NCBI GenBank assembly: GCA_964247135.1
Contig: CAXTTL010000110.1
Coordinates: 1-15,628 of the forward strand
Reading direction: 5' to 3'
DNA length: 15,628 nt
DNA from: an uncultured Deinococcales bacterium
GTDB lineage: Bacteria; Deinococcota; Deinococci; Deinococcales; JAAFIG01
The notes below the pieces were generated by a model. The model saw only the letters and a list, made by a program, of their open reading frames with translations, was not told where the DNA came from and searched no databases. How positions within the stretch are numbered: position 1 is the stretch's first letter; each line of letters starts with the position of its first letter. Shown in pieces: positions 1 to 15,628 of the stretch. The translations under genes and the position numbers were made by a program.

Positions 1-3000
1 GTACTGCCCTCGAGTGGACCTTTTTGGGCGAGATTGTGATTGACGGGGGCAACCACGGCGGCAGTCACGTCCGGTTTGGGGCGGCGTTCTTCAAAACGGC
101 GTTTTTGCGGCTCGAATTTTGGACGAGGTTGTGCGGGTTGACTCGAAGCGACTGGACTCGAGGCTGTCGGACTTGCGACAACCGAACTCGAGCTTGGAAT
201 TGGCGTCGTTGCGGTTTGTGGGTTTGGATTCTTTGGACGGTTGAATCGGCGGCGCGGGTCGTTGCGACCTTCAATTCGAGGTTCAGTACGAACTTCAGGG
301 CTACCCTCAACTCGAGCCTCCACGTTTGGACGGGGCGTTTGATTCGGGTTTTGGCGCGGGTGCTGGTTTGGATTCGGACGCGGGTGCTGGTTGGGGTTAA
401 CTCGAGCTTGGTTGTTGGGTTGCGTGCTCGGGCGTGAACCGTTCAATTGGTTGTTGCGGGTGTCACCAGCATTGCCACGCTCGTCGGCTTCCATGTTCTC
501 GCGGGTCCACTCGCCAAAGTACAACTTGCGGGCGGTGACCTTGACGGGTCTGGAGTATTCGCCGTGCATTTTACCGTCCAGTACGACCACACGGCGACGG
601 TTATCGCCTTTTAAAGCGGCTGGCTTTTGGACTCCAGCGCCGCCTGGGCGGTTGCGGAATTTTCCCATGGTGTTCTCCTTGACAGGCAGCGCAAGATCAA
701 TCTCGCGCCCGACTGCGTTGACGCGTTCGATGCGAACGCGCACTGGTGTGCCCAGACGGAACATCCGCCCTTGACGACCTTTGAAAGCTTGCGAACCTTG
801 AATGAAGGTGTATTGATCGTCTTTCATGTCCTCGTGGCGCATCAGACCTTCGACGCCATTCTCGAGGGTCACGAACACGCCGAACGGCATCACGCCGCTG
901 ATGTAACCGCGCCAGGTTTCACCAATTTTGCCTTGCGCCCATTTGCACTGGTAATACTTGTTCAGGTCGCGTTCGGCGCTGGTGGCGTTGCGTTCGCGCT
1001 CGCTCACAAACTCGCCCAGTTCGGGCAGGCTTTCGCGCAAAACCTCGCGTTTTTTGTCGTTTAATTTTTGTGCGATCACCAGTTTTAAAACGCGGTGCAC
1101 CAGCAAATCTGGGTAACGACGAATCGGGCTGGTGAAGTGCAAATAATCGCTAAACGCCAGCCCGAAATGACCTTTGTTCTCGCTCGAGTATTTGGCTTGA
1201 CGCAAGCTGCGCAGCAACAACGAGTTGACGGCGCTCTCTTGCGGCGTGCCGCGCACCGACGCCAAAATCTGTTGATAGGCTTGCGGGGTTGGCTCGAGCA
1301 GACCGGCTTGGGTCACGCCCATGCGGTTGAGGGCGTCCAAAAGTTCCTTGAAGCGCGTTTCGGCTGGGACTTCGTGAATGCGAAAAAGCGCGGGCGCGTC
1401 GTTTGCCAGCAAGAACGCCGCAATCAGGCGGTTTGCCAGCAGCATCAAATCTTCGATCAACCCTCGAGCCGTCTCTTCACGCACCGGCACCAGGCGCGGC
1501 GAACCGTCAGGCTCGAGCACGACCTTGACCTCAGACAGTTTGAAGTCCAGGCTGCCGTCGCGGAAGCGTTTTTCGCGCATTTTGGTGGTGAGCTTCAGCA
1601 GCAAATGCAAATCGCCTTCAACATCCCTGGCATGGTCGGGCATGGCGGATTTGCCCTCGGAGAATGACTGAACTTCGTTGTAAGTGAGTCGTGCTTTGGA
1701 GTGAATCACGCTGTTTCGCACGGCGTAATTGACCACATCACCCTCTGGGCTGAGTTCGACCAGCGCCGACACCGTGAGACGGTCTGCGAACGGCACGAGC
1801 GAGCAGACGCCGTTTGACAGACGCTCGGGCAGCATCGGCAGAACTTTTCCAGGCAGGTAAACGCTGGTTGCCCTGGTTTTGGCTTCAATGTCAAGCTTGC
1901 TGCCGTCGGTCACGTAATGCGAGACATCGGCAATATGAACGCCGACCAAGAAATTACCGTTGCCGAGCGGTTCGATGTGAATCGCATCGTCAAAATCTTT
2001 GGCATCCTCGCCGTCAATCGTGAACACGCGCTTGACCCGCAAATCGACCCGACCTTGCAGGGCTTTGACCGGAATCTCGAGCGGAATTTTTTCGGTCTCG
2101 AGCATCACGTCGCTTGGGAATTCGTCGCGCAGGTCAAACTTCACGACCACCGCTTGGGTTTCGACCTCTGGCGAGTCGCTGATGCCGAGCACGCTCGAGA
2201 TTTCACCGAACGGTTCGTCCTCGCCGGTGTTTTCGGGCCAGTGGAGTTTGGCGACCACCCGAGCGCCAGCCGAGAGGCGGTCACGGTAGGGCATCAGCAC
2301 AATGCGGTGCGGAATTTTGTTCTCGTCGGGGCGCAAAATCGCGTAACCCTGCCTGTACTCGAGTGTCCCAACCACTTCGTCGCGGTCACGCTCGAGAATG
2401 CGGATGACCACGCCGCGAGAACGGTTTTGGCTGCGTTCCTCGCGCACGACGACACGGTCGCCGTGCCAGGCGAACAAAGAATCTCTGGCGTCAATGCCAA
2501 ATTCTTTCATGCCTGGGGTTTCGGGTTGCACGATGCCGCCACGGTTGCCAGTCAGGCTGTAGCGCCCAACGACCAGGTTGACATCTCGAGGCAAGCCGTA
2601 AGTGTGACGGCGCACCAGCGTTAAACGCCCTGCGGCGACCAGATTCTCGAGTGAATCCTCGAGTCCCTTGCGTCCGCCAAGACGCTCGTAATCAAAAGCG
2701 GGCAGGCGTTTGGCAATGTCGCGCACCTGATGCGCCCTGGGGTTGGCGCGGAAAAATTCGAGCAGCGCCTCGAGCGGGTCGAGCGGCGCTTTTTGGGTTT
2801 CAAAAATGTTCGTTCGTCCAGCTTTTCGCGCCCGCACGGTCGGCTTGCTGGTTTCTGGCACCGGAATCGGTTTTAAGGTTTCTGCGTCCAGATTCTCGAT
2901 TGGGGTTTCGTCAAGCTGTTCAGGTTCGAGCGAAACTGATTTTGATGTTTCAAGCTCCAGTGGAACAATTGTAGGCTCGAGGCTTACCGTTTCGAGCGGC

Positions 3001-3620
3001 AACAACTCGAGTTGTTGCACTTTGGGAATAATCTTTTTGCGCCCACGGGTTTTCTTGGGTGCTTCAGTCACTTCTGGCGTTGAAGCTTCGCCAACCTTGG
3101 GCTTTACAGGTTCAAGGGTTTCAGGCTCGAACAGCACAGCTTCTGGATCGAGTAACACTTCGGGTCTGGCGCGTCTGGTTTTTGGTTTGAGCGCTGGTGA
3201 CGTGGTGACCTCTACAGGCGCAACGAGAACGGGCGCAGCAAGCAGCGCCCCTACGGTTTTTTGCTTGCTTTGAACTTTGGGTTTGCTTTCAATTTCGATC
3301 ACAGGTTTTGATTCGGTGGTTGCTTCCTCAAGAACTTTTTTGCTGCGTCCTCGGGTTTTAGGCGCGGTTTCGAGTAAGACAGATTCTGGAGGCTCGGGTA
3401 CAACTGGGTTGCTCACCTCGAGCGTGACGGAGTCCTGCACCTCGAGCACCGGCACAACAAATTCAACGGGAGCGGACTTCTTCGCACCTCGAGGGACAGA
3501 TTTCTTCGCTTTGCCGTTCAAAGCGTCCTGGATTTGGGTTGGTTGAGTTTCCTCAACGGCTTTTTTCCTCGGTTTTTTCGAGGCGGGCGCTTTCGCACCT
3601 TTTACAACAGACTGGCTAAT
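1..3620 (-). CDS. rnr: Ribonuclease R (RNB family) with long disordered N- and C-terminal extensions; 3' end lies outside the window
   Basis: Manual translation of the minus frame (codons start at positions = 2 mod 3) showed no stop in the segments I read (3620-2500, the motif regions, 720-1). Catalytic motif FTIDGEDAKDFDDAI at about 2024-1980, then VHIADVSHYV, ATSVYLPGKVLPMLPERLSNGVCSL, HFTSPIRRYPDLLVHR (about 1139-1092) and an S1-like region ending ..REIDLALP (about 690). Start set at ATT 3620 because SD AAGGAG lies 5 nt upstream and an in-frame TGA lies 11 codons upstream. Confidence 0.95.
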   Translation of the reverse strand, partial: MSQSVVKGAKAPASKKPRKKAVEETQPTQIQDALNGKAKKSVPRGAKKSAPVEFVVPVLEVQDSVTLEVSNPVVPEPPESVLLETAPKTRGRSKKVLEEATTESKPVIEIESKPKVQSKQKTVGALLAAPVLVAPVEVTTSPALKPKTRRARPEVLLDPEAVLFEPETLEPVKPKVGEASTPEVTEAPKKTRGRKKIIPKVQQLELLPLETVSLEPTIVPLELETSKSVSLEPEQLDETPIENLDAETLKPIPVPETSKPTVRARKAGRTNIFETQKAPLDPLEALLEFFRANPRAHQVRDIAKRLPAFDYERLGGRKGLEDSLENLVAAGRLTLVRRHTYGLPRDVNLVVGRYSLTGNRGGIVQPETPGMKEFGIDARDSLFAWHGDRVVVREERSQNRSRGVVIRILERDRDEVVGTLEYRQGYAILRPDENKIPHRIVLMPYRDRLSAGARVVAKLHWPENTGEDEPFGEISSVLGISDSPEVETQAVVVKFDLRDEFPSDVMLETEKIPLEIPVKALQGRVDLRVKRVFTIDGEDAKDFDDAIHIEPLGNGNFLVGVHIADVSHYVTDGSKLDIEAKTRATSVYLPGKVLPMLPERLSNGVCSLVPFADRLTVSALVELSPEGDVVNYAVRNSVIHSKARLTYNEVQSFSEGKSAMPDHARDVEGDLHLLLKLTTKMREKRFRDGSLDFKLSEVKVVLEPDGSPRLVPVREETARGLIEDLMLLANRLIAAFLLANDAPALFRIHEVPAETRFKELLDALNRMGVTQAGLLEPTPQAYQQILASVRGTPQESAVNSLLLRSLRQAKYSSENKGHFGLAFSDYLHFTSPIRRYPDLLVHRVLKLVIAQKLNDKKREVLRESLPELGEFVSERERNATSAERDLNKYYQCKWAQGKIGETWRGYISGVMPFGVFVTLENGVEGLMRHEDMKDDQYTFIQGSQAFKGRQGRMFRLGTPVRVRIERVNAVGREIDLALPVKENTMGKFRNRPGGAGVQKPAALKGDNRRRVVVLDGKMHGEYSRPVKVTARKLYFGEWTRENMEADERGNAGDTRNNQLNGSRPSTQPNNQARVNPNQHPRPNPNQHPRQNPNQTPRPNVEARVEGSPEVRTEPRIEGRNDPRRRFNRPKNPNPQTATTPIPSSSSVVASPTASSPVASSQPAQPRPKFEPQKRRFEERRPKPDVTAAVVAPVNHNLAQKGPLEGS
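327..398 (-). repeat. Three imperfect 24-nt tandem units encoding NPNQHPRP / NPNQHPRQ / NPNQTPRP in the RNase R tail
   Basis: Read directly from the translation of the rnr frame. Confidence 0.8.
666..680 (-). promoter_or_regulatory. Candidate internal in-frame translation initiation site in rnr (AAGGAG-6 nt-ATG)
   Basis: Minus strand reads gtcAAGGAGaacaccATGggaaaa. The ATG at 668 is in the rnr frame immediately after the S1 domain. Confidence 0.55.
3231..3254 (-). repeat. GTAG-type REP-like palindrome embedded in frame in rnr (encodes VGALLAAP)
   Basis: Minus strand GTAG-GGGCGCTGC-TT-GCTGCGCCC: a GTAG tag followed by a GC-rich palindrome with one mismatch, the layout of RAYT-associated REPs. 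Confidence 0.6.
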
Positions 3621-3834
3621 ACAAACTCCTTCACCCTGAAAAACTTGTTTTCAGGAAACCCGAGTGCATAATCCGTGACCTCGAGCAAGATCATGTTGCG
3701 CTCATCACGGCTGATGCCGAATGACTCCCACTGTTGGGTAGCGCTTGTTGAGATGGCGTTGTTCTTCACGCAGAACTTAATTCCTTCGGGGGGCTGAAAA
3801 ACGCAGGTACGTTTAAAGTCCTCATCCGAGACCT
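3621..3834 (-). promoter_or_regulatory. Putative ~214-nt structured 5' leader of rnr
   Basis: Lies between the extended -10 (3849-3841) and the ATT start. Contains hairpins at 3761-3776, 3727-3738, 3703-3716, 3676-3693 and 3635-3655. Confidence 0.45.
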
Positions 3835-3840
3835 GAGGGT

Positions 3841-3849
3841 AGTATAGCA
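3841..3849 (-). promoter_or_regulatory. Extended -10 promoter element for rnr (TGcTATACT)
   Basis: Minus strand atTGC-type motif reads aaaaTGcTATACT; an A 7 nt downstream (3834) is a plausible transcription start. Confidence 0.6.
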
Positions 3850-3935
3850 TTTTGGGGCGCCCGAAAACTGCGCCAAATGACCTATTCGCAATCAAGCTCG
3901 AGCAGCACAGCTAAAATCCGTGATTTAGCGTTTGT

Positions 3936-4346
3936 TTAAGAATCCTCGAGCAAATCGCGCAAATACTGTGGAATCGGCACGGTGCGTTTTTCAAAATCGG
4001 TTGCCATGTGCTCGGTAAACCCTTCGGCTAAAAGTAAATTGTCGCTGGCACGTTCAACGGCGTACTCGAAACGAACCATGCGCGATTTTAAACTGCCAAG
4101 TCGGGTGGTTAATATTATTGTGTCGTCAAAGACGGCTGGACGGCGGTATTTCACGCCAACGCTCGTGACCACCAAGTACACGCCGCGCTTCTCGACCTCG
4201 GAATATGGCAAACCCAACTCCTCGAGGAACGCCACGCGTCCCATCTCGAGCCAGATCACGTAATTGCTGTGATGCGCGATGCCCATCGCGTCGGTTTCTG
4301 CATAACGAACCTTGAATTGCAGTTGGGATTGCACCGCTTTTTTCAT
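3936..4346 (-). CDS. Acyl-CoA thioesterase, YbgC/FadM (4HBT hotdog) family
   Basis: Signature VRYAETDAMGIAHHSNYVIWLEMGR and YRRPAVFDD. ATG 4346 (MKKAV..) is preferred over 4379, which overlaps rbfA by 23 nt. Confidence 0.9.
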   Translation of the reverse strand: MKKAVQSQLQFKVRYAETDAMGIAHHSNYVIWLEMGRVAFLEELGLPYSEVEKRGVYLVVTSVGVKYRRPAVFDDTIILTTRLGSLKSRMVRFEYAVERASDNLLLAEGFTEHMATDFEKRTVPIPQYLRDLLEDS

Positions 4347-4356
4347 AAGATTTTTT

Positions 4357-4647
4357 TCATACAAAACTGTTCGCCGCATCCAAAAACTCGAGCAGCGGCG
4401 TGCGTTTCATCCGAACCTCTCGGGCGATGGCGCGTTGCAACAAGCCTTTCGCGCCGTTCAACGCCTCGAGCATGGGGGCAACCTCGCCCAAACCCGACAC
4501 AAAAACTTTGGCGTTCATCAAATCGGTGCTGATCTGCACGCGGTCAATTGTGATCACAATTGGCAATCTGGGGTCGCTCAGTTCATGTATCGCGTTTGAT
4601 AAAACCCGAGCGATGGTGGATTCAACTTGCGAGGTGCGCTGGCTCAT
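4357..4647 (-). CDS. rbfA: 30S ribosome-binding factor A
   Basis: 96 aa with motifs ELSDPRL, VQISTDLMNAKVFVS and GLLQRAIAREVRMKRTPLLEF. Confidence 0.93.
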   Translation of the reverse strand: MSQRTSQVESTIARVLSNAIHELSDPRLPIVITIDRVQISTDLMNAKVFVSGLGEVAPMLEALNGAKGLLQRAIAREVRMKRTPLLEFLDAANSFV

Positions 4648-4651
4648 AAAA

Positions 4652-4787
4652 TAGCTCTAAGCTTTAAGCCACAAGCTCCAAGCTCGAGATTCCTGATGCC
4701 AGAAGGTTTAAAAAATGGCTGAAAAGAAGTTGCTTTTATTGCAATGAAACAAAAAGAATTTTGCTTAAAGCTTAAAGCTTGGAGCTT
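4652..4787. repeat. Two inverted arrays of AAGCnnn heptamer tandem repeats flanking an AT-rich spacer
   Basis: Left array 4652-4686: tagctct aagcttt aagccac aagctcc aagctcg. Right array 4760-4787, reverse complement: aagctcc aagcttt aagcttt aagcaaa. Confidence 0.75.
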
Positions 4788-4798
4788 ATCGCTGCCCT

Positions 4799-6124
4799 TC
4801 ATGATGCCCCGCCCACACGCCTGATGACACTGGCAACCGATTCGGCAAGTTCTTTGATTAAACTTTCGCTCGGACCTTCGATCATGACGCGCACCAGCGA
4901 TTCCGTGCCGCTGGGTCGCAAATTCACCCGTCCCAAGCCCGCCAGTTTTTGTTCGACCTCGAGCACGGCTTGTTGAACGTCTTTGTGTTGAGAAATCCCG
5001 TGCTTGTCGGCAACGCGCACGTTGACCAGGGTTTGCGGGAACAGCGGCATCTCGTTGCGCCACTCGAGCAGGCTTTTAGCGCTTTGCCTGATGGCTTTGA
5101 GGGTTTGCAGCGCGGTCATGATGCCGTCGCCGGTGGGTGCCGCGTCCAAAAACAGGGTGTGACCGCTCTGTTCGCCGCCCAGGGTAAAGCCTTTCTCGAG
5201 CATCCGCTCCAAAACGTAGCGGTCGCCGACGTTGGTGCGCTCGAGGTTGATGCCGTGCTCGCGGAGTTTGACTTCCAAGCCCATGTTGCTCATGAGCGTG
5301 GCGACCACGGTGCGTTCTTTGCGGGTCACGCCGTTGATGTAAAGTACGTGGTCGCCGTCGACCATTGCGCCGCCCGAGTCGACAAACAGGGCGCGGTCGG
5401 CGTCGCCGTCGAAGGCGATGCCGAGGTCAAACCCAAGGTCTTTGACGGTTCGCTGCAACACTTCGGGGTGGGTGCTGCCGCAGTTTAAATTGATGTTTTT
5501 GCCGTCTGGCGTGGTGAAAATCGTGAAAACATCCGCGCCGGCGCGTTGAAAGACTTTGGGAGCAATGTGAAATGCCGCACCGTTGGCGCAGTCGAGCACA
5601 ATTTTGACGCCCGTCAAATCTGGGGCGTGACTGAACAAGAAGTCGCCGTACAGGTTTTCGGCTTCGTGGTAATCCTTGACCGTGCCGAGTGCCACGCCCG
5701 TCAAGTCCGAAATGGGTTTCTCGAGGTTGGCTTCGATTTCGTGCTCTAAAGTGTCGGAGAGTTTTTCGCCGTTTGCGCCGAAGAATTTGATGCCGTTGTC
5801 CTGGTAGGGGTTGTGGGAGGCGCTGATGACCACGCCTGCGGTTGCCCCAAGTTGACGGGTCAGGTAACTGACCCCAGGGGTTGGAATGATGCCAATGTGA
5901 ATCACATCGACGCCCTGGGCGGTCAAGCCTGCCGCCAGCGCCGCCTCGAGCATGTCGCCGCTGCGCCGCGTGTCGCGCCCGATGACCACGCTGGGTTTGC
6001 GCGACTGGGTTTTGAAAACCTCGGCAGCCGCTTTCCCGAGGTTTAGGGTCCAAGTGGCGGTCAGTGGGTGTTGTCCCGCGACGCTGCGCACGCCGTCCGT
6101 ACCAAAAAATTTGCGATCAGCCAT
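4799..6124 (-). CDS. glmM: Phosphoglucosamine mutase
   Basis: FFGTDGVR N-terminus, GVVISASHNP phospho-Ser motif, DGDADR metal loop, GGEQSGH and RPSGTE; SD AAGGA upstream. Confidence 0.96.
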   Translation of the reverse strand: MADRKFFGTDGVRSVAGQHPLTATWTLNLGKAAAEVFKTQSRKPSVVIGRDTRRSGDMLEAALAAGLTAQGVDVIHIGIIPTPGVSYLTRQLGATAGVVISASHNPYQDNGIKFFGANGEKLSDTLEHEIEANLEKPISDLTGVALGTVKDYHEAENLYGDFLFSHAPDLTGVKIVLDCANGAAFHIAPKVFQRAGADVFTIFTTPDGKNINLNCGSTHPEVLQRTVKDLGFDLGIAFDGDADRALFVDSGGAMVDGDHVLYINGVTRKERTVVATLMSNMGLEVKLREHGINLERTNVGDRYVLERMLEKGFTLGGEQSGHTLFLDAAPTGDGIMTALQTLKAIRQSAKSLLEWRNEMPLFPQTLVNVRVADKHGISQHKDVQQAVLEVEQKLAGLGRVNLRPSGTESLVRVMIEGPSESLIKELAESVASVIRRVGGAS

Positions 6125-6183
6125 AAAAATTCCTTAAATGAGGGGTTTCTCGAGTGGTTCACCCGAGGCTTGAAGAGAGGGTC

Positions 6184-6192
6184 AGTCTATCA
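6184..6192 (-). promoter_or_regulatory. Extended -10 element for glmM (TGaTAGACT)
   Basis: Motif match about 60 nt upstream of the glmM ATG. Confidence 0.5.
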
Positions 6193-6437: not shown

Positions 6438-9095
6438 ATGAAGTATTCACGTTATACGTTGATGCTTGTAGTTGGTCTCACCCTGGGGGCTTGCAATCAA
6501 GCCGCGCCGCAAGAAATTGCCATCGTCGGCGATCAACCGAGCGCCAAGGCGAACCTCTCGAGTGCGAGCGGCTTTCAAAGCCTGATGCCGCTCAATGCCC
6601 TGCCGGCGGTCAACGACCAAATGGTCAACGAAACGCCCAAATCTTGGTTCGTCGAATTGAGCGGCAACCCGGAAGCCGACGGCGGCGTTCGCTCGAGCTT
6701 GGATTCAGAGCGGGCAGGCTTCAAACGCGATGCCAACAGCCAAGGCGTGAAATACGAGGTGCGCCGTTCGTACAGCGACTTGTTCAACGGTTTTTCGGTG
6801 CGGGCAAGTGGCAGCGAAATCGTTAAAATCTCGCGCCTGCCAGGGGTTCGGTCGGTTTACCCAGTCGGTCAATCGACGCTTCCCAAAAGCGAAGTGGTCT
6901 CCAACCCCGACCTTGCCACCGCCATCACCATGACCGGCGCGGACATCGCCCAGAACGAACTCGGGCTTGATGGTCGCGGCGTCAAAGTGGGCGTGATCGA
7001 CAGCGGCATTGACCTTCAGCATCCAGACCTGGCGGGACGCATCACCAACCAATACGATTTTGTTGGCGACGCCTACAACGCCGACCCCAGCAGCCCAAGT
7101 TTTAACCCAGTGCCAACGCCAGACCCAATCGCCGACGATTGCGGGGGTCACGGCACGCACGTCGCAGGCATCATTGGTGCGAACGGTCAAGTCAAAGGCG
7201 TTGCCCCAGCCGTCAGCTTCGGTGCGTACCGCGTCTTCGGTTGTGAAGGCTCAACCGATGACGACGTGCTCTTGGCGGCTTTGGAGCGTGCCAAAGCCGA
7301 CGGTATGCAAGTCATCAACATGAGCCTCGGGTCATCGTTCGGCTGGGCGCAATCGCCACTGGCTCGAGCCTCGAGCCGTCTGGTCAAAAAAGGCATTGTG
7401 GTGGTCGCCTCGGCGGGCAACAGCGGCGATTTGGGCTTGTACTCGACGGGTGGACCCTCGGCGGGCGAAGAGGTCATTTCGGTGGCTTCGTTTGATAACA
7501 TTGCCGTCAGCTTGCCGTACTTTACGGTGTCCCCAAATCAAACCCATGTCGGTTACATCGAAGCCACGGGCGCACCGGCAGCACCAACCTCGGGCATGGC
7601 AGGCATTGCACGCACCGGTACGATCACCACCACCAACGATGCTTGTGCACCACTGGCGGCGGGCAGCCTGACGGGCAAGACCGCACTGATTCGCCGTGGC
7701 ACTTGCTCGTTTTATTCCAAAGCCAAAAATGCCCAAGATGCGGGCGCGGGCGCCGTGGTCTTGTACAACAATGCGGCTGGACGAATCAACCCGACCGTGG
7801 CGGGCAGCCCAGCCATCACCATTCCGGTAGTTGCGATCACCCGCGAAGACGGGATTGCCATCAATGCGCTCTTGGACGCCGCAGCGGTCGATCAAACCTG
7901 GACCAACCAACGCGACGGATTCCCAGTCCCAACCGGCAACCTGATCTCGAGCTTCAGCTCTTACGGACTGGTGCCAGACCTCAGCCTCAAGCCCGACATT
8001 GGTGCGCCCGGCGGTCTGATCCGCTCGACCTATCCACTCGAGCTTGGCGGTTACGCCACCCTCAGCGGCACGTCCATGTCCTCGCCGCACGTGGCTGGCG
8101 CGGTGGCGTTGCTGTTGCAATCCAACCCCGACATCAAAGCCATCGACGTGCGCAGTTTGCTGCAAAATACCGCCAGCCCTCGAGCCTGGTTTGGCAATCC
8201 AACCCTCGGCTATCTGGACAGTGTGCACCACCAGGGCGCGGGCATGTTGCGCATCGATTCTGCCGTGCTCAGCCCAACCACCGTTTACCCATCCAAGCTC
8301 TCGTTGGGTGAAAGCGCAAACGGACCTGTACAAAACGAACTCGAGGTGGTCAATGACAGCCCAACTGCCGTCACCTATACCCTCAGCCACGAGCCAGCCC
8401 TGTCCACTGGACCCAATACCTACGCCCCAGCATTTGGCACAGGCTTTGCCAGCACAACCTTCAGTTCGCCGACCGTGCGCGTTGAACGCCGCAGCAAAGG
8501 CACCGTCAGTGTCACCATCACCGCCAACCCAGCCCTTCCTGACCGCAGCATTTACGGCGGTTACATTGTCCTGACGCCCGACAACGGCGGACAGGTGATC
8601 CGCGTGCCTTACGCCGGCTTCAAAGGCGATTACCAAGCGATTCAGGTGCTCTCACCAACCGCCTATAACTTGCCGTGGCTGGCAAAAGTGGTTGGCACAA
8701 ACCTGGTCAATCAAACGGCTGGCGCGAGCTTCACGATGCAAGCTGGCGACTTCCCAGAAATCTTATACCACCTCGACCACCAATCCAGGCGCTTGCGATT
8801 TGACGTCTACAACATTGCCACGCCCAAAAAGACCTTCCTGATTGACGGCGCGGATTACCTGATTCGCAATTCGGGTCCAAATGGTTTCTTTGCGCTCGAG
8901 TGGGACGGCACCGCCACCAAAGACGCCGAGGTTGCCGAGAACGGTTTTGTCACGCCAGACCCCAAGAAGATCGTGACCTTGCCCAACGGTCAATACGCCA
9001 TCAAGATTACCGTCACCAAAGCGCTGGGCAAATTCAACCGACCCAGCGACACCGAAACTTGGATTTCGCCCACCATCACTGTTGCCCGTCCTTGA
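6438..9095 (+). CDS. Lipoprotein subtilisin-like S8 serine protease (I9-like propeptide, S8 catalytic domain with PA insert, Fn3-like C-terminal domains; Vpr-like)
   Basis: Lipobox LGAC. Triad motifs VIDSGID, HGTHVAG and GTSMSSPHVAG; oxyanion SAGN; PA domain ALIRRGTCSFYSKAKNAQDAGAGAVVLYN; KPDIGAPG. SD GGAGGT upstream. Confidence 0.95.
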   Translation: MKYSRYTLMLVVGLTLGACNQAAPQEIAIVGDQPSAKANLSSASGFQSLMPLNALPAVNDQMVNETPKSWFVELSGNPEADGGVRSSLDSERAGFKRDANSQGVKYEVRRSYSDLFNGFSVRASGSEIVKISRLPGVRSVYPVGQSTLPKSEVVSNPDLATAITMTGADIAQNELGLDGRGVKVGVIDSGIDLQHPDLAGRITNQYDFVGDAYNADPSSPSFNPVPTPDPIADDCGGHGTHVAGIIGANGQVKGVAPAVSFGAYRVFGCEGSTDDDVLLAALERAKADGMQVINMSLGSSFGWAQSPLARASSRLVKKGIVVVASAGNSGDLGLYSTGGPSAGEEVISVASFDNIAVSLPYFTVSPNQTHVGYIEATGAPAAPTSGMAGIARTGTITTTNDACAPLAAGSLTGKTALIRRGTCSFYSKAKNAQDAGAGAVVLYNNAAGRINPTVAGSPAITIPVVAITREDGIAINALLDAAAVDQTWTNQRDGFPVPTGNLISSFSSYGLVPDLSLKPDIGAPGGLIRSTYPLELGGYATLSGTSMSSPHVAGAVALLLQSNPDIKAIDVRSLLQNTASPRAWFGNPTLGYLDSVHHQGAGMLRIDSAVLSPTTVYPSKLSLGESANGPVQNELEVVNDSPTAVTYTLSHEPALSTGPNTYAPAFGTGFASTTFSSPTVRVERRSKGTVSVTITANPALPDRSIYGGYIVLTPDNGGQVIRVPYAGFKGDYQAIQVLSPTAYNLPWLAKVVGTNLVNQTAGASFTMQAGDFPEILYHLDHQSRRLRFDVYNIATPKKTFLIDGADYLIRNSGPNGFFALEWDGTATKDAEVAENGFVTPDPKKIVTLPNGQYAIKITVTKALGKFNRPSDTETWISPTITVARP

Positions 9096-9120: not shown

Positions 9121-9160
9121 AAAACGCGCCTATCGATAAATGGTGGGCGCGTTTTCTATT
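9121..9160 (+). terminator. Intrinsic terminator after the S8 protease gene
   Basis: Stem aaaacgcgcctatc / ggtgggcgcgtttt (two G-U pairs), 7-nt loop, T-rich tail, 26 nt after the stop. Confidence 0.8.
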
Positions 9161-9191
9161 TTGAACAGCCTTAACGGGATCGATTCTCGAG

Positions 9192-9436
9192 GGGTGCGTC
9201 CATAGATTGAGTATAAACTCCCTCAAATTTGGATTTCGACTGAATTTCCGCAAGCCCTCACCCCGTCGTTCGCTGCGCTCACAACGACCCTCTCCCGAAT
9301 ATTCGGGAGAGGGTGACGAGCCTCGGCGAGTCGGGTGAGGGCTGCTGGCGATTTTTGGCAAAACAGAAAATACGGCTGTCCTGAACGTAGTCATCGTTTT
9401 TGCTTAGATTCCTGTACCCAATCTGTGGACGTACCC
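9192..9436. mobile_element. Non-autonomous MITE-like element, 245 bp, 24-bp imperfect TIRs, 8-9 bp target duplication
   Basis: Left end gggtgcgtccatagattgagtata (9192-9215) versus reverse complement of right end gggtacgtccacagattgggtaca (9413-9436), 20/24 identical. Flanks are aTTCTCGAG (9183-9191) and tTTCTCGAG (9437-9445). No transposase ORF. Confidence 0.75.
9253..9343. repeat. BoxC-like nested palindromic (cruciform) repeat
   Basis: Outer stem agccctcaccc/gggtgagggct, inner stem gtcgtt/aacgac, and a perfect 28-bp palindrome accctctcccgaatattcgggagagggt (9287-9314). Confidence 0.75.
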
Positions 9437-9481
9437 TTTCTCGAGTTGGTCAAAAAACCAAACTCGAGAATTCATAAAAAC

Positions 9482-9539
9482 CGTGTCTGACAGAATTTTC
9501 TCTCGTGTCACGCTCGTGTCACGCTCTATTTTGTATGGT
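9482..9539 (+). promoter_or_regulatory. 11-bp-phased direct repeats (PhoB/OmpR-type box candidate) upstream of a possible -10
   Basis: ctcgtgtcacg occurs twice in tandem (9502-9523), a third cgtgtc lies 22 bp earlier (9482), and TATGGT follows at 9534-9539. Confidence 0.4.
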
Positions 9540-9771
9540 ACGGCTCGAGCAGGAAAAAGGGAGAAAATGATGGGTTACGAAAAAGCAACGACTCTGGTTG
9601 GGAAATTCCCAAAGAAGACTTCACCCCCGAAACTCGAGGAAGGTTGAACCGTTTCTGGAGCTTGAGACTGGTTTGGATTATAATATTTTTGGTCTGGTTG
9701 AGGCTCAACATGGTCGGTCAGGTTCATTGTTTGGCTTGAAGGCGCTCGAGAATTTAAGGTTCAAGGAGCTT

Positions 9772-10899
9772 ATGTTGAACATTCGTCTTGGTTGGATTTC
9801 TTTGCTGGCGCTGGGCTTGAGTGCCTGCCCTCAAAATGCAATCCCAGCCGATCATCTGGTGTTGGTGTCTCAGGCTGGCTCGAGTACCCTGGCGGTCATT
9901 GACCCAGGCAGCGGTGAGACGATCAAACGAATTACGGTCGGTGGTTTACCGCACCGTTTGCTGGTGCTTGGCGACAAAGTTTACGCGCTGCTGGTCGGTT
10001 CGCAAGCCATTGCCGAAATTGACATCAAGTCCCTCGAGGTCACGCGCACCATGTTGACCGCAGCGGTGCCCAAAAATCGCAGCGATGGCAGCCTGATTCA
10101 GGGGCACATTGACCGAGACGCTTTTTCCAAAACCACCTGTTTTGCCTGCCACAACACCAGCGCCGAGGGCGTCAAACCGTTCGTGGTCGGTGAGCGCCCC
10201 GTGGGTTTAACGCCCTCGAGCGACGGCAGCAAACTGATCGTCTCGCACCTTCGCAACTCGAGGTTGAGTGTGCTGGACCGAAGTTCTGGCAGACTCGAGC
10301 AAAGCGTGATGCTAAGCCCAACGGGGACGGCTTCAGAATTGTCTGATGTGGCAAGCCTTGGGCAAAAATTGGTCGTGACCATGCGGTCAGCGCAACCGAG
10401 CACCACTCCTGGCGTGGTGCGTTGGTTAAACGCCGATACGCTCGAGGCGGTCTCGGAATTTGCGACTGGCAGCGACCCGAGTTTTATCCTAGCCATTCCC
10501 AACCGCGACAGTGCTTTGGTTTCAAATTTTGAGTCCAACACCGTCACCGAATTTAAGGCAGATGCCGCGCCCGTCTCGCACGAGGTCACCCCAGGTCCAC
10601 TTGGCACACGGCACCTGCCGGACGGGCGAATTTTGACGCTCAATTATTACTCGAACAGCGTTTCAATTCTTGATTTGGTCAAAAACCAGAGCAGCACCTT
10701 CAAACTCGAGTTGGACAACCAAGAATTTGTCAATCCAACCAATGCCGCGCTCTCGCCAGATGGTCAAGTGGCGTACATCGTCTCGAGCGGGACCGACGCG
10801 CATTTGTTGGTGTTTGATTTGCAATTGCAACGGGTCGTAAAAGCCATAAAAATTGATGGTCTGAGTTTTGATGTGGTTGTGATTCCGCGCATTCCGTGA
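9772..10899 (+). CDS. Lipoprotein with YVTN/YncE-type beta-propeller and one CxxCH heme c-binding motif (375 aa)
   Basis: ATG 9772 with SD AAGGAG; lipobox LSAC. Propeller repeats such as TLAVIDPGSGETIKRITVGGLPHRL, VGERPVGLTPSSDGSKLIVS and NPTNAALSPDGQVAYI. CFACH at 10138-10152. Confidence 0.85.
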   Translation: MLNIRLGWISLLALGLSACPQNAIPADHLVLVSQAGSSTLAVIDPGSGETIKRITVGGLPHRLLVLGDKVYALLVGSQAIAEIDIKSLEVTRTMLTAAVPKNRSDGSLIQGHIDRDAFSKTTCFACHNTSAEGVKPFVVGERPVGLTPSSDGSKLIVSHLRNSRLSVLDRSSGRLEQSVMLSPTGTASELSDVASLGQKLVVTMRSAQPSTTPGVVRWLNADTLEAVSEFATGSDPSFILAIPNRDSALVSNFESNTVTEFKADAAPVSHEVTPGPLGTRHLPDGRILTLNYYSNSVSILDLVKNQSSTFKLELDNQEFVNPTNAALSPDGQVAYIVSSGTDAHLLVFDLQLQRVVKAIKIDGLSFDVVVIPRIP

Positions 10900-10966
10900 C
10901 AGCTAAATAACGGCAATCGATCAGCTCGAGCTTCCCTCGAGGGCGCAAGTGTTTCAGGAGGTGGGT

Positions 10967-12880
10967 ATGAAAAAGTTATTCGGTGCATGGATGCCGCGAC
11001 TCGTCTTGACCCTGGGGTTTGGTTTGGTCGCCTGCGGTGGGGGCAGCAACCCTCCCCCTGGTCCGACGGACACTGGGGTGGTCGCCGGTTTGGTCACCGA
11101 CATCAGCAACGGCGCAAGGTTGGCGGGCGTGAAAGTCACGCTGGTCGGAGGCAGCACCACGGTCAACACCGACAGCAAGGGCGAATTTGCCCTCAGCAAC
11201 CTGGCGACCGGAACCATCAACTTCTCGCTCGAGAAGACCGGATTTGCGCCCAGTTACGCCAGCGCCGAGGTGGGCAACACCGCGCAGACGGTGCTGGTCA
11301 GTTTAAAAAAAGAAGGCTCGAGGCAGACGTATGATGCCTCGCAAACCAAAACCTTGATTCAACGCACCGAGGCTGGACCGTATGCCGTGATTTTCACGGC
11401 GGGCAGCTTGGACACCAGCGACACCAACCTCAAGGTTTCAATCACGCCGCTCGATCCGACCAAAGAACTTTCCGCCCTGCCGGGCGAACTGGCAACCAGC
11501 AGCACGCCGCTGTCGGCGGTGACCTTCGCCGAATTCACGATTTACGACTCGAGCGGCAAAAAAGTCAACCTCAAAGCGGGCGCCAACGCGATGGTCGAAC
11601 TGCCCATTCCGGCTGATTTGCGCGTTCAATACCCCTTGGGGGCAATCATTCACTGTTATGCCTACAACCCGCAAACGGGCAAATGGGAGGATTTTGTCGA
11701 GGGTACGGTCGTCACCTCGAGCGTCGATAACAGCACCCCAGTGCTTCGCGCCCAGATCAGGCACTTCAGTTGGTACGGTGGCGCTCCAGAAGTCAAAAAG
11801 CAACGCTGCGCTCGGGTGAAAGTCCGCAGCGCCCTGACCGGCGCGATTCTCGAGGGGGCGAGGGTGACGGCAAGCCCTGGGCTGAGTGCCACCACCAACG
11901 CCAACGGTTCGGCGAACATCACCGTCGAAGACGGTGTGCCTGTGACCTTCACCGCCAGCCGAACCTATCCAAACAGTTACGTCGAGAATGGGATCATCGT
12001 GACCAAACCTGGCTTTCCTGGAAAGGTCATCGAGATCGGCAAGGTCACACGCCTGCCCAACATCTGGGTGGATGATCCAGGCAAACCCTGCACAAAACCC
12101 GCCGCCCAAACCCCTGAACCCCCCACCCGAGATGCCGCCGATGGTCTTGAAATCGTCATGGGACTTGCGCCCGACGCTGTATACCAAGCCTTTGGTCAAC
12201 TGAACACCAGCGGTTTTTCCTTGATCTTGCAAAAAGGCATTCCCAACACCGACGGCGGCATCGACGAGCCTGAAGCCGCCGGAGGCGCCAAAATCATGCT
12301 CTCGGATGGCAGCACCAGTGTCAACCTGCAAGAAATACCTTCTGGGCAACCGAACGTTTCCACCGGTTATTACAGCCTACCGACGGTTGCCCCAACGCTG
12401 AGCATTCAACCAGGCGGGCGTTACACCGTGACCATCGACGGCGATGCCAACGGCACCATTGATGGTTCGGGTTCTGCCTCGGTGGTCGGGCACCTTGCCT
12501 TCAGCAACATTGTCCAGGGCGGACAATACACCGCCAACGGTTTTACGGTCGCCTGGACCGATTCTGGTACAGCCACGCCTGGATACAACGTCTTGTATCA
12601 GGTTCTGGCGCTGCCCAAAAACGCGCAACAATCCTCGAGTATCGGTTTTTACACCGGCTCGAGCCTCAGCGCCAGCTTGGGGGTGATCGATTTCGCCAAT
12701 CCTGGTGGCTTGCCACAACCCTTAACGCCTGGCAATTACAGCATCTCTTTGACTGGTTTCAGCGGTGGTTTTGCCGCCGCGACCGGTTTTAGCCAAAGCG
12801 ATAACATCACGGGCGTTGGGGTGAGCGGTCAGTTGTTCAGTTTCGGTTCGGTTCCGCAAGTGGACGTCACGCTGAAATAA
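10967..12880 (+). CDS. Lipoprotein with carboxypeptidase-regulatory-like (Ig-like) domains and an HFS-motif beta domain (637 aa)
   Basis: ATG 10967 with SD AGGAGGT; lipobox LVAC followed by a GGGSNPPPGP linker. VAGLVTDISNGARLAGVKVTL..TDSKGEFALSNL..LEKTGF matches the CarboxypepD_reg pattern. Also YAYNPQTGKWE..RAQIRHFSWY and a second Ig-like unit. Confidence 0.85.
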   Translation: MKKLFGAWMPRLVLTLGFGLVACGGGSNPPPGPTDTGVVAGLVTDISNGARLAGVKVTLVGGSTTVNTDSKGEFALSNLATGTINFSLEKTGFAPSYASAEVGNTAQTVLVSLKKEGSRQTYDASQTKTLIQRTEAGPYAVIFTAGSLDTSDTNLKVSITPLDPTKELSALPGELATSSTPLSAVTFAEFTIYDSSGKKVNLKAGANAMVELPIPADLRVQYPLGAIIHCYAYNPQTGKWEDFVEGTVVTSSVDNSTPVLRAQIRHFSWYGGAPEVKKQRCARVKVRSALTGAILEGARVTASPGLSATTNANGSANITVEDGVPVTFTASRTYPNSYVENGIIVTKPGFPGKVIEIGKVTRLPNIWVDDPGKPCTKPAAQTPEPPTRDAADGLEIVMGLAPDAVYQAFGQLNTSGFSLILQKGIPNTDGGIDEPEAAGGAKIMLSDGSTSVNLQEIPSGQPNVSTGYYSLPTVAPTLSIQPGGRYTVTIDGDANGTIDGSGSASVVGHLAFSNIVQGGQYTANGFTVAWTDSGTATPGYNVLYQVLALPKNAQQSSSIGFYTGSSLSASLGVIDFANPGGLPQPLTPGNYSISLTGFSGGFAAATGFSQSDNITGVGVSGQLFSFGSVPQVDVTLK

Positions 12881-12901
12881 GCCAGTCCTTTAAGGAATCA
12901 A

Positions 12902-12930
12902 GTGGTGAACTCGAGCTTCGAGTTCACCAC
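12902..12930 (+). terminator. Strong hairpin after the lipoprotein gene, probable terminator
   Basis: 13-bp perfect stem gtggtgaactcga / tcgagttcaccac with a 3-nt loop; the U-tract is weak. Confidence 0.6.
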
Positions 12931-13037
12931 ATCATTTCTCGAGAGAAAAATCCCAAGCGTCACTTTTGCAACCCAAATTCCTCGAGCCAGTTAAAGTTCT
13001 TCTGAAAAATGCGAACAATTTATTGCACAAAACGCGC

Positions 13038-13043
13038 TATGAT
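13038..13043 (+). promoter_or_regulatory. -10 element of a probable leaderless transcript
   Basis: TATGAT lies 5 nt upstream of ATG 13049 and no SD is present. Confidence 0.55.
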
Positions 13044-13048
13044 GCCTT

Positions 13049-14674
13049 ATGTTTGAGGCGAAAACAGTCACTCCAGCTTGGATTCGTTCGCAACTGATCG
13101 GTGCAAGCTCGAGCATCACAACGCCGTTTGGATCAAGGGCGTTAACCTACGCCGATTATGTGGCGTCTGGGCGATCCCTCGAGTTTGTTGAACAAGTCAT
13201 TCGGGAAAAAGTCTTGCCATTTTACGCCAACACCCACACCGAAGATTCGTTCACTGGGGCGCAGACCACGCACTTGGCGCACGAAGCCGCCGAGTACATC
13301 AAAACCCAAGTTGGCGCAATAGATTACAAGATTGTCTTCGCGGGTTCGGGGTCTACCGCCGCCATCAAACGCCTGCAAGACATTCTGGGCTTGAGCGTTC
13401 CCAGCAACCGCCGCGCCGCCATCCTTGCCGCCATGCCGCCGCTCGAGCGTCCAGTGGTCTTCGTTGGTCCTTACGAACATCACAGCAACGAGGTCTCATG
13501 GCGCGAAAGCCTTGCCGAAGTCGTCGAGATTCCCTTGTGCCCCAAAGGTCTGATTGACTTGGACGCGCTTCACGCCGCACTGACCGACTCGAGGTTCGCG
13601 GGTCGCCCCAAGATCGGGTCGTTCTCGGCTGCGAGCAATGTCACGGGCATTATTTCGGACACGCGTTCGGCGGCAAGGCTTCTTCATGCCCAGGGGGCGT
13701 TCGCATTTTTTGATTTCGCCGCCTCTGCGCCTTACGTCAAAATTGACATGAAACCAGGCAAGTTAGACGGTTACGATGCGATTTTTATTTCACCGCACAA
13801 ATTCGTGGGTGGTCCTGGCACGCCTGGCATTCTGATCTTTAACCCTGCCCTGTACAGCCTCTCGAGTCCGAGTACCGCAGGCGGTGGCACGGTCACCTAC
13901 GTCAATTCGGGCGAGCATTATTTTACCTCCGACATCGAAGCCAGGGAAGACGCCGGAACGCCCGCGATTACCCAGAAAATTCGTGCCGCACTGGCGTTTT
14001 GGGTCAAAAACGCCTTGGGCGTTGAAAACATCGAAAAACTCGAGAAACACTATATCCGCACCGCCATCAGCCGTTTAAGGGCACATCCCAAACTCGAGCT
14101 TCTGGGCAACCTCGAGACGCCACGGCTGGCAATCCTGTCGTTTTTGGTCCGTTGTCCCGAAGGTGGGTATTTGCATCCGCGTTTTGTGGTGAGGCTTTTG
14201 AATGATCTTTTTGGTATTCAGTCCAGGGGCGGTTGTGCCTGCGCCGGACCGTATGGGCATAAGTTGCTCGACATCGACGCCGCACACTCGGACGGCTACC
14301 GTGACGCCATTTTGGAGGGGTTTGAGGGCATCAAACCAGGTTGGACGCGCCTTAATTTTAATTCGTTCATCAGCCCCGAAGAGTTTGAATTCTTGCTGAG
14401 GGCGCTCGAGTTTGTTGCCGATGCTGGCGAGCGTTTTGTGCAACTGTACGATTTTGACTGGCGTTCGGGGGCTTGGAAACACCCGCTTGATATTGCGCCG
14501 CAAAGTTTGTTCTCAAATCTCGAGCCTGAAATCACCTCGAGCCAGACTGCCACAATTCCAGATTACGCGGCTTACCTCGAGTTCGCCCACAAGCTCGCCG
14601 CCAGTCTCGAGTTGACAGCCTCACGTCCAATCCCGCCCGAAGTCAACCCTGAATTGGTGTCCTTTAAACGCTAA
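13049..14674 (+). CDS. Class V PLP-dependent aminotransferase, cysteine desulfurase-like
   Basis: YADYVASGR, YANTHTE, EHHSNEVSW, SAASNVTG, FDFAASAPY, PLP-lysine motif SPHKFVGGPG, EDAGTP, and RGGCACAGPY (equivalent to the SufS catalytic-Cys loop). Confidence 0.9.
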   Translation: MFEAKTVTPAWIRSQLIGASSSITTPFGSRALTYADYVASGRSLEFVEQVIREKVLPFYANTHTEDSFTGAQTTHLAHEAAEYIKTQVGAIDYKIVFAGSGSTAAIKRLQDILGLSVPSNRRAAILAAMPPLERPVVFVGPYEHHSNEVSWRESLAEVVEIPLCPKGLIDLDALHAALTDSRFAGRPKIGSFSAASNVTGIISDTRSAARLLHAQGAFAFFDFAASAPYVKIDMKPGKLDGYDAIFISPHKFVGGPGTPGILIFNPALYSLSSPSTAGGGTVTYVNSGEHYFTSDIEAREDAGTPAITQKIRAALAFWVKNALGVENIEKLEKHYIRTAISRLRAHPKLELLGNLETPRLAILSFLVRCPEGGYLHPRFVVRLLNDLFGIQSRGGCACAGPYGHKLLDIDAAHSDGYRDAILEGFEGIKPGWTRLNFNSFISPEEFEFLLRALEFVADAGERFVQLYDFDWRSGAWKHPLDIAPQSLFSNLEPEITSSQTATIPDYAAYLEFAHKLAASLELTASRPIPPEVNPELVSFKR

Positions 14675-15087
14675 TCTTGCTCGAGTTTTAAAAACCGCCC
14701 TTTTTTGCTCGGTGACAAAAAAATGATCACCGGTTTCTCGAGTTCTGGGCGAAGTTCCAAACCCCATTCGATCACGATCAGCCGCGCCGTGTCCAAAAAT
14801 TCGTCCAAACCCATGCGCCACAATTTTTGCGGACGCTCGAGCCTGTGGGCGTCAATGTGAATCAGTTTGCCCTCGGGTGTTGGATACTCGTGAATCAAAT
14901 TATACGTTGGGCTGGTGACTTCGGCGCTCGAGCCTAAACCCCTCGCGATACCTTTGGTCAGCGTGGTTTTGCCCGCGCCCATCTCGCCCACCAGCAAGAT
15001 CACGCTGCCACGCCCAAACCTGGCGGGCAGCGTTTCACCGAATGCCTCGAGTTGTTCGGCAGTCTCGAGGGTGTGCGCTTCGGTCAT
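14671..15087 (-). CDS. tsaE: tRNA threonylcarbamoyladenosine biosynthesis ATPase TsaE
   Basis: Walker A GEMGAGKT, VTSPTYNLIHEY, HIDAHRL and VIEW. ATG 15087 is preferred over TTG 15108. Its stop overlaps the aminotransferase stop by 4 nt. Confidence 0.93.
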   Translation of the reverse strand: MTEAHTLETAEQLEAFGETLPARFGRGSVILLVGEMGAGKTTLTKGIARGLGSSAEVTSPTYNLIHEYPTPEGKLIHIDAHRLERPQKLWRMGLDEFLDTARLIVIEWGLELRPELEKPVIIFLSPSKKGRFLKLEQD

Positions 15088-15094
15088 AACAATG

Positions 15095-15100
15095 ATTCTA
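15095..15100 (-). promoter_or_regulatory. -10 element of a probable leaderless tsaE transcript
   Basis: TAGAAT lies 7 nt upstream of ATG 15087 and no SD is present. Confidence 0.55.
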
Positions 15101-15129
15101 CTTGACAATCAGAGGCTTCAAAGGAGTTT

Positions 15130-15380
15130 TCATGCTCCGTCAATACCAACTTCAATCCTCGTCTTCGTCGTAATCGGCATCTCCGCGCTCGGAATGGCTG
15201 AACGGTAAAACCTCATCAAGACGAAACTCTTGCCTTCCATTGGCAGGTCGGCTTTATCCTCGAGTTCATTGCTCGCCAGCGTGGCGGATTCATCACGCAA
15301 ACCTGAGGTTTCTGCGGCAGTGTCGACTTGATCTTCAAAACTCGAGTCGATCAATTCTTGATCATCGTCGGTCGTTTTAA
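15130..15380 (-). pseudogene. Acidic hypothetical ORF, possibly frameshifted or degraded
   Basis: The acidic reading TDDDQELIDSSFEDQ..EDKADLPMEG continues more plausibly in an adjacent frame as EFRLDEVLPFSHSERGDADYDEDED* (stop 15154-15152). No clear start or SD. Confidence 0.3.
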
Positions 15381-15628
15381 CAGCTCAAAATCAAAATGCT
15401 TTAACAGGCTGAAGCCAGTGCCAAGTCGAAGATGCCCGCCCGCTTTTGAACCGAGGGTTGATAACCAGTAAACTCTAAGGCACACCAACTCGGCTGCTTG
15501 ATCGGTCTGCTTCAGCCCAGAATCAGCTTCGTTTCAGTACAAACACAGGTAAACCTTTAATACTTTAGCCATGTTACAGCGCCTTGCATATTGGTTGACG
15601 TAAGCGCAAACTAAACCATGAAACCCTA

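Follow-up and report, generated by a model that had tools for sequence, protein, structure and literature searches.

The window considered here is the whole of a 15,628-nucleotide contig (C110, GenBank CAXTTL010000110.1) from the genome of an uncultured Deinococcales bacterium (G000), and its subject is the hexamer CTCGAG, which is a lineage-specific highly iterated palindrome (HIP)-like word of the Deinococcales; it is neither a restriction target nor an artefact of codon usage, nor does it represent a repeat element. A first-pass annotation of the letters had counted about 95 copies in the window. The exact count is 95 (6.1 per kb), against a mean of 3.48 (standard deviation 1.86, maximum 10) in 200 dinucleotide-preserving shuffles, none of which reached 95. 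GC content over the window is 0.51-0.60. Eighty of the sites lie in predicted genes and fall in all three codon phases (phase 0: 50, phase 1: 7, phase 2: 23), the other 15 belong to the intergenic DNA, about 2.1 kb in total, and each of the nine predicted genes has at least two, in agreement with the annotation's placing of the word in every gene and in intergenic DNA. The features that bear on the hexamer are as follows.

3 to 3521, minus strand: rnr (RNase R, with RNB, CSD2 and S1 domains), whose open reading frame (ORF) runs past the window start; 24 sites
187 to 192: phase-2 site in rnr, AGC TCG AGT (Ser-Ser-Ser)
311 to 316: phase-1 site in rnr, GCT CGA GTT (Ala-Arg-Val), with the same spelling at 401
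4799 to 6124, minus strand: glmM-like phosphoglucosamine mutase gene; 6 sites, all Leu-Glu
7363 to 7375: tightest site pair of the window, with starts at 7363 and 7370, 7 bp apart
9186 to 9549: spacer between the S8 protease gene and the next gene; 4 sites, at 9186, 9440, 9463 and 9544
12910 to 12986: intergenic spacer; 3 sites in 77 bp, at 12910, 12938 and 12981
13049 to 14674, plus strand: class-V aminotransferase gene; 13 sites (phase 0: 9, phase 2: 4)

In rnr the sites are read as CTC GAG (Leu-Glu) 15 times, as nCT CGA Gnn five times and as nnC TCG AGn four times, and the codon examples by which the annotation had illustrated the three phases all hold. The RNase R ORF is itself long, with at least 1,173 amino acids (aa), of which approximately 330 at the N-terminus, preceding the OB, cold-shock and RNB domains, have no Pfam match; the tail C-terminal of the S1 domain is also long. 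In glmM, four of the six sites are family-specific replacements to Leu-Glu: at sites 5240, 5195, 5063 and 4958, orthologues from outside the family have FY, KA, AD/SE and QE, respectively, and the sites align to substituted residues, not to insertions. Site 5945 is an ancestral Leu-Glu, spelled CTG GAG in two Thermus records and CTC GAA in a metagenome-assembled Deinococcus genome.

Abundance in the genome and imprint on the proteome

The source genome (5,091,702 bp in 386 contigs, 52.7% GC, 84% complete by marker genes) contains 33,925 copies of CTCGAG, one per 150 bp, which places it first among hexamers by count and disposes of the possibility, left standing in the annotation, that the enrichment is confined to the window. 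Observed/expected is 24.8 when base composition sets the expectation, 35 with a dinucleotide null and 14.4 with a trinucleotide null; with tetranucleotide and pentanucleotide nulls, both themselves mostly built from CTCGAG, it is 3.45 and 1.24. No other palindromic hexamer is enriched (the runner-up stands at 3.7x), and the majority of those that contain G+C are depleted. Of all hexamers, GAGCTC alone, the backward reading of CTCGAG with the same codons reversed, does not occur in the 5.09-Mb genome. That the signal might instead belong to the inner tetramer TCGA, as had also been suggested, is excluded: 62% of TCGA lies inside CTCGAG, the remainder amounts to 41,370 against 39,533 expected on base composition (double-strand counts), and the remaining NTCGAN words are at or below expectation, with GTCGAC and TTCGAA depleted about ten-fold. 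The words one base away from the site are not depleted relative to base composition (TTCGAG/CTCGAA 1.74, CCCGAG 1.43, CTTGAG/CTCAAG 1.17). A/T runs are unusually common for a genome of this GC content (AAAA/TTTT 3.0x, CAAA/TTTG 2.9x), and CAAAAA, GGTTTT and TTTTGA are among its most over-represented hexamers.

The core of the word is exactly 6 bp and palindromic, and its flanks add little information. They show a slight preference, the same on either side of the core, for A at -3 and -2 and for G at -1; the two sides are uncoupled, and base frequencies are at background within three bases of the core. An extended palindrome or hairpin was rejected, as eight-base palindromic extensions occur at 21% of sites and about 27% are expected from independent flank frequencies. 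Spacing between sites in the genome is near-geometric (coefficient of variation 0.96), the codon period alone is visible with no helical or other short-range periodicity beyond it, and all 810 five-kb windows of the genome hold at least nine sites. A 6-bp spacing of sites is absent genome-wide because it would create the missing word GAGCTC.

The relation of the word to protein coding was evaluated on genes called by our own crude ORF-based predictor (4,272 genes, 84.7% of the genome). Density is 6.60 per kb in coding and 7.00 per kb in non-coding DNA, and short intergenic spacers hold 9.9 per kb (convergent 12.3, divergent 7.95). Permutation of synonymous codons within genes, which keeps the protein and the codon counts, predicts 3,912 sites where 28,460 are observed (7.3x), with an excess of 5.8x, 14.6x and 11.5x in phases 0, 1 and 2, and permutation of codon order gave an excess of 16.4x. 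The annotation's proposal of a frame-independent cause acting on the DNA is thus borne out by the enrichment of every phase over codon-aware nulls and by a non-coding density that is equal or higher; the controls for codon-pair, amino-acid and TCGA usage that it had thought might abolish the enrichment do not do so, synonymous permutation leaving it at 7.3x and TCGA outside the word being at expectation.

Leu-Glu is the most over-represented dipeptide of the proteome (observed/expected 2.35), CTCGAG spells 77% of the 23,025 Leu-Glu, and GAG is the next codon after 44% of all CTC codons. The excess of Leu-Glu is a consequence, and not the cause, of the excess of CTCGAG because Glu-Leu stands at only 1.01, and about 13,000 Leu-Glu dipeptides have been added to the proteome by the CTCGAG-directed force. 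A by-product of composition, codon or dipeptide usage, with CTC and GAG favoured and Leu-Glu common, could draw on the 62.5% of coding sites that are in the CTC GAG phase, and on the Thermus records and the genus g9 described below, in which GAGCTC is on a par with CTCGAG. Such an artefact is refuted by the excess that survives both permutations and extends to phases 1 and 2, by the non-coding density, by the complete absence of the reversed codons GAGCTC and by the ordinary count of Glu-Leu, and it is left with practically no probability.

Conservation, turnover and distribution

At three loci of the same genus that are syntenic with the window and 85-88% identical to it, 72-86% of the sites are shared, versus 45-50% of other hexamers, and site gains and losses at the window loci number 13 and 12. 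A larger comparison was made with the same-genus genome G005 (345,584 bases fetched, 236,010 alignment columns, 85% identity), in which 1,313 sites are common, 337 occur only in G000 and 250 only in G005; 1,313 of 1,650 sites (79.6%) are thus shared, versus 44.7% for other hexamers. Third codon positions are identical to G005 in 88.5% of cases within sites and 70.4% outside (p = 3e-118), and non-coding bases in 95.3% and 83.7%, respectively (p = 1.5e-31), so that on the side of conservation also the DNA-level proposal stands, synonymous and non-coding site positions being held above background and turnover proceeding by substitution. Transition differences at half-site positions 1, 2 and 3 number 101, 95 and 75, which amounts to near-even protection, and one-base site differences have no CpG excess in raw counts that are not rate-normalised and are compatible with cytosine methylation. 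A force exact for the hexamer on duplex DNA creates CTCGAG by point substitution where protein constraint allows; the same force retains the sites once made and is strong enough to override protein sequence. That the excess is a real, DNA-level and actively maintained hexamer signal can be held with high confidence.

Site differences between G000 and G005 arose by substitution in 587 cases and by full gaps in seven, and none of the 29 six-base insertions is CTCGAG. These counts bear on the idea of a dispersed repeat or mobile-element footprint, whether like miniature inverted-repeat transposable elements (MITE) or repetitive extragenic palindromes (REP) or as six-base insertion scars, for which the very high copy number might speak, as might the fact that six-base insertions could in principle give in-frame Leu-Glu. 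Together with the glmM sites, which are substitutions, with flanks near background beyond three bases, and with the near-geometric spacing, the substitution-type turnover refutes this explanation, whose remaining chance is negligible.

The manner of turnover and the spread of the sites are relevant as well to a role in chromosome architecture, in which an abundant nucleoid-associated or repair-scaffold protein would bind CTCGAG and selection would act on site density and not on single sites. Consistent with this are the near-random, ubiquitous spread, with at least nine sites in every five-kb window, the rough balance of gains and losses (337 and 250 in the larger comparison, 13 and 12 in the smaller) and a weak excess of gains near losses, there being 60 pairs within 50 bp where 38 would be expected at random, an excess that is not significant within 20 bp. 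A structural role has been proposed for HIP1 of cyanobacteria as well (PMC5861425). No candidate protein has come forward, there is no helical or short-range periodicity beyond the codon period, and the turnover signal is confounded, and an architectural role is considered unlikely.

The distribution of the word was surveyed in 363 genomes of the order, one of them unpublished, with sizes rounded. All 19 genomes of the source family (f1, five genera) have 4.3-6.8 CTCGAG per kb; observed/expected on local base composition is 12-30 in the five of the 19 that were sampled, and on synonymous permutation it is 7.3 in G005. Within family f3, the genus g19 includes the highest densities in the order, 8.6 per kb in G149 and 7.0 per kb in G150 (local observed/expected 32 and 27, and 10.5 on synonymous permutation in G150), together with G151, a 2.3-Mb genome in five contigs with no C5 or N4/N6 methylase, which has 0.3 per kb (observed/expected 1.4 and 1.25). 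Identity in conserved genes between G150 and G151 is only about 69%, which makes this a deep "genus". In the same family, G032 of genus g15 has 3.6 per kb (synonymous-permutation value 3.5), and genus g7, with 111 genomes, has at most 0.36 per kb and is depleted. Several genera of families f2 and f5 have 1.4-3.5 per kb and few GAGCTC, and the 32 genomes of genus g9 have about 0.6-1.6 per kb with GAGCTC equally common, so that CTCGAG does not exceed its reversed form. In Meiothermus taiwanensis DSM 14542 the density is 2.6 per kb over 21 kb (7.6x base composition, 3.4x synonymous permutation); three Thermus loci are at 0.71x on synonymous permutation, their high raw count being equalled by GAGCTC. 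The Leu-Glu excess tracks the same gradient across genomes. The trait is family-wide in f1, graded elsewhere in the order and labile at genus depth, and the contrast of G149 and G150 with G151 provides natural material for tracing the responsible gene. Named records nearest to the window are metagenome-assembled "Deinococcales bacterium" genomes, which bears out the annotation's guess of Deinococcota.

Methyltransferases, nucleases and purged palindromes

The annotation had envisaged a HIP-like system with an orphan methyltransferase, and had proposed a search for a CTCGAG or TCGA enzyme that lacks a nuclease and co-occurs with the enrichment. The HIP-like, DNA-level behaviour holds; the methyltransferase driver was looked for and not found, and the search gave no family-wide candidate in f1. 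The corresponding explanation, Elhai's model for HIP, is that an orphan methyltransferase marks CTCGAG and that methyl-directed or very-short-patch-like repair turns near-cognate mismatches into the site. Cognate orphan methylases are reported to co-occur with HIP1 and alternative HIPs (PMC4390886), and CTCGAG is listed among the motifs methylated in metagenome genomes from hot springs, in passages that do not tie it to Deinococcota (10.64898/2026.06.24.734251). The f1 genomes also contain many methyltransferases, and one C5 methylase of the source genome, located among housekeeping genes, looks like an orphan:

C178 of G000 (L102:2933-4105), minus strand: orphan-looking C5 methylase of 391 aa with no nuclease neighbour

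This gene sits between DUF512 radical-SAM-like and PEGA-domain genes, near an indigoidine-synthase-A-like gene. As a family-wide driver it was rejected, a search of 31 genomes having located full-length orthologues in just three besides the source genome.

The word is also that of the XhoI, PaeR7I and BsuMI systems. Restriction normally selects against its sites, not for them, and genuine XhoI-family systems are confined to 7 of the 363 genomes, none of them hyper-enriched or in f1 or g19; these seven carriers have ordinary densities of 0.7-2.0 CTCGAG per kb. The XhoI-family endonuclease (PF04555) was found in 0 of the 19 f1 genomes, source genome included. An N4/N6-family methylase of 340 aa adjoins the nuclease in all six intact loci, among them L311:6897-8794 of G021. 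The pair is convergent in G021 and G161, and in G356 the nuclease is interrupted by stop codons. Both of the aligned 340-aa methylases have an SPPY motif, which is typical of N4-cytosine enzymes. Searches with tblastn gave no orthologue of this methylase in G000 (best match 25% identity, to an MvaI/BcnI-linked methylase), and there was none in the 19 f1 genomes (best partial match E = 3e-17).

The other enzymes of the source genome were rejected one after another as readers of CTCGAG. Its M.PvuII-like methylase matches the solved enzyme at E = 1.5e-149, with CAGCTG at 15 sites, and its M.HaeIII-like methylase goes with a GGCC count of only 380; the MvaI/BcnI system, a NotI-like system, two MmeI-like enzymes, a 1,500-aa methylase-helicase, the type I system and a SacI-type D12 system are all other systems and unfit for this word. 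The single-contig f1 genome G011 has no N4/N6-family gene, and a search of it limited to one D12 protein and three methylase families gave just four methylase genes: a SacI-type D12 enzyme, an HsdM-like enzyme, a 1,108-aa fused enzyme and a C5 methylase without orthology to the C5 enzymes elsewhere in the family. None of the four is shared by f1 as a whole, and among the f1 genomes compared there is no shared C5, N4/N6 or gamma-class orthologue, though one from an unrecognised methylase family may exist. Vsr (PF03852), sought as the repair partner in such a scheme, had no match in the 84% complete G000, while control genomes responded.

With both XhoI-type genes missing from f1, the C5 methylase of G000 sparsely shared, G011 provided as described, Vsr not found and one-off neighbours not depleted, the methylase explanation is doubtful. 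Also against it are the three half-site positions, which are equally protected, unlike what is expected of single-position T:G repair, and the placement of the sole C5 methylase of G032 on a site-poor island, which has 0.85 CTCGAG per kb versus about 4 per kb in the rest of that genome.

Site-poor patches are found in the source genome as well, the poorest being a Mu-like transposase, a helix-turn-helix (HTH)/unknown island and a sugar-utilisation (sugar-uptake) operon, with 0.7-3 per kb beside genes with 9-14 per kb. Two of these are low-GC islands and the site-poorest:

C17 of G000, 20000 to 25500: transposase-type HTH and large proteins
C79 of G000, 827 to 2932: Mu-like transposase

Two large proteins of the HTH island (810 and 780 aa) are almost without Pfam match, and a terminase search for prophage in G000 gave no match. 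These patches and the methylase island of G032 fit DNA that arrived site-poor and was then enriched in place, in keeping with a build-up of the sites in resident DNA. Among viral contigs with three close CTCGAG, the 25 densest of the matches listed are mainly of 63-73% GC (one 58%), and most of these 25 hold GAGCTC too.

A second property of the source genome is the purging of other palindromes, which is far beyond usual restriction avoidance. GGGCCC occurs once, CGGCCG three times, AGGCCT four, CGTACG five, GGATCC seven, CCGCGG 11, CAGCTG 15 and GCATGC 17 times, and GGCC 380 times in all. The purged words match in part the M.HaeIII-like, M.PvuII-like, MvaI/BcnI and NotI-like genes of G000; avoidance of GGCC is not common to all CTCGAG-rich genomes. 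The absence of GAGCTC is attributed to the presence of a D12 methylase and a SacI-family nuclease:

C320 of G000 (L282:1064-2988), minus strand: D12 methylase beside a SacI-family nuclease

Seven f1 genomes (G000 included), seven g7 genomes and G150 have an orthologue of the D12 methylase, each of them with a low GAGCTC count, and f1 members without the orthologue are also nearly devoid of the word.

Purging on this scale, the total absence of GAGCTC included, shows that cutting plus conversion is powerful in the lineage, and it enters into another explanation, that of sequence-specific conversion, in which a nuclease or glycosylase would act on near-cognate hexamers and repair from a sister copy would drive CTCGAG without benefit to the cell. 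Equal protection of the entire hexamer and a force that overrides protein sequence would agree with it. One-off words, however, are not depleted, multi-copy genomes have to be presumed, and to our knowledge no enzyme cuts every one-off variant and yet spares the site itself; conversion of this kind is regarded as quite improbable.

Interpretation and meaning

Cyanobacterial HIP1 (GCGATCGC) and the alternative HIPs are, like CTCGAG, short G+C-rich palindromes that are hyper-abundant genome-wide, occur in all reading frames and between genes, are better conserved than their surroundings, and are lineage-wide with exceptions inside the clade. HIP1 spreads by substitution, as does CTCGAG. A kilobase-scale period in the spacing of HIP1 has been reported. 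Unlike HIP1, which is 8 bp in length and has the methylases DmtA and DmtC, CTCGAG is a 6-bp word of another phylum with a density of about one per 150 bp. An orphan methyltransferase cognate to CTCGAG was not found, and the word leaves a clear imprint on the proteome with Leu-Glu as the top dipeptide. One-base deviations are even over CTCGAG, whereas in HIP1 they reportedly favour the outer bases (PMC4390886).

The DNA uptake sequences (DUS) of Neisseria and the uptake signal sequences (USS) of Pasteurellaceae are similarly short words over-represented in coding and non-coding DNA, accumulated by substitution and enriched between convergent genes, and they are explained by a self-reinforcing uptake/recombination drive, which would protect all positions of a word equally. 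DUS and USS span 9-12 bp, lack palindromic symmetry and occur roughly once per kb, with a known or inferred receptor, whereas CTCGAG is palindromic, of 6 bp and without orientation. Dcm-Vsr of E. coli (CCWGG) offers a case in which repair tied to one methylated word can raise its frequency genome-wide, an effect that is small and depletes the T-containing neighbour; CTCGAG is unlike it in its approximately 25-fold excess, its undepleted T-for-C neighbours (1.74 and 1.17) and the want of a Vsr match in G000. Chi and other hotspot words are likewise short and over-represented, and CTCGAG could, like them, stimulate recombination. Chi is oriented, of 8 bp and enriched only a few-fold, and a palindromic CTCGAG cannot carry strand polarity. 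Stimulation of recombination has been suggested for HIP1 also (10.1101/2024.09.10.611283).

A sequence-specific protein presumably reads CTCGAG. The even protection of all positions and the undepleted neighbours indicate that whole-site recognition fits better than a one-position repair bias. The boldest reading, to which a probability of roughly 0.35 is assigned, is that of a second, independent invention of a HIP without a recognisable methyltransferase, in which a hexamer-reading protein uses CTCGAG as a kin tag for uptake, recombination or repair. In the explanation preferred here, CTCGAG would be the recognition site of a sequence-specific DNA-binding or DNA-processing protein, and sites would accumulate as a kin-DNA tag by which site-rich DNA is preferentially taken up and/or recombined homologously, through a self-reinforcing molecular drive of the DUS/USS type such as is now proposed for HIP1; a classical methyltransferase would not be required. 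HIP1 is reported to raise the efficiency of natural transformation and is now proposed as an uptake signal (10.1101/2024.09.10.611283; PMC13756078). The kin-tag role for uptake or recombination, taken for itself, may be correct and is put forward tentatively, at somewhat less than even odds.

Several points weigh against the proposal of a kin tag read by a hexamer-specific protein. The searches for methylases and nucleases identified no protein that recognises CTCGAG, and the role in uptake or recombination is drawn solely by analogy with other systems. Known uptake sequences have 9-12 bp, are oriented and are about ten times sparser than CTCGAG is here, and with six bases and one copy per 150 bp the word would discriminate only some 25-fold against foreign DNA. 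The between-species comparison leaves selection and biased conversion indistinguishable, and the pairing of gains with losses is only suggestive of compensatory site turnover, being confounded by local rate variation. The gene set is a crude one, as stated, and related genomes in the survey are not independent observations.

In summary, what began as a count in one contig has led to a word whose iteration is apparently undescribed so far: full-text searches of the literature gave no description of CTCGAG hyper-abundance, and the HIP1 papers searched contain no mention of CTCGAG or Deinococcus. What HIPs do is a question of thirty years' standing, and work on it has been confined to cyanobacteria. 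CTCGAG provides a second case, which differs from the first in belonging to an unrelated phylum, in its word, in its greater density and in having no cognate methyltransferase detected, and which thereby serves as a test that separates general features of HIP1 (maintenance at the DNA level, substitution-driven spread) from particular ones (orphan methylases). Grading over 363 genomes, with an on/off contrast within one genus, is material for phylogenetic profiling. With Leu-Glu as the top over-represented dipeptide, the case shows the reach of DNA-level pressure on a proteome, and it carries a practical warning for the clade, in which composition-based binning, detection of horizontal transfer and XhoI-based cloning are all affected. 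If the hexamer is indeed a methyltransferase-free kin tag, then over ten thousand protein positions would have been rewritten in the service of a word driven to a copy every 150 bp; and with a trait that would be switchable within a genus and weaker in cultured Meiothermus, HIP function would become directly testable in a second phylum.

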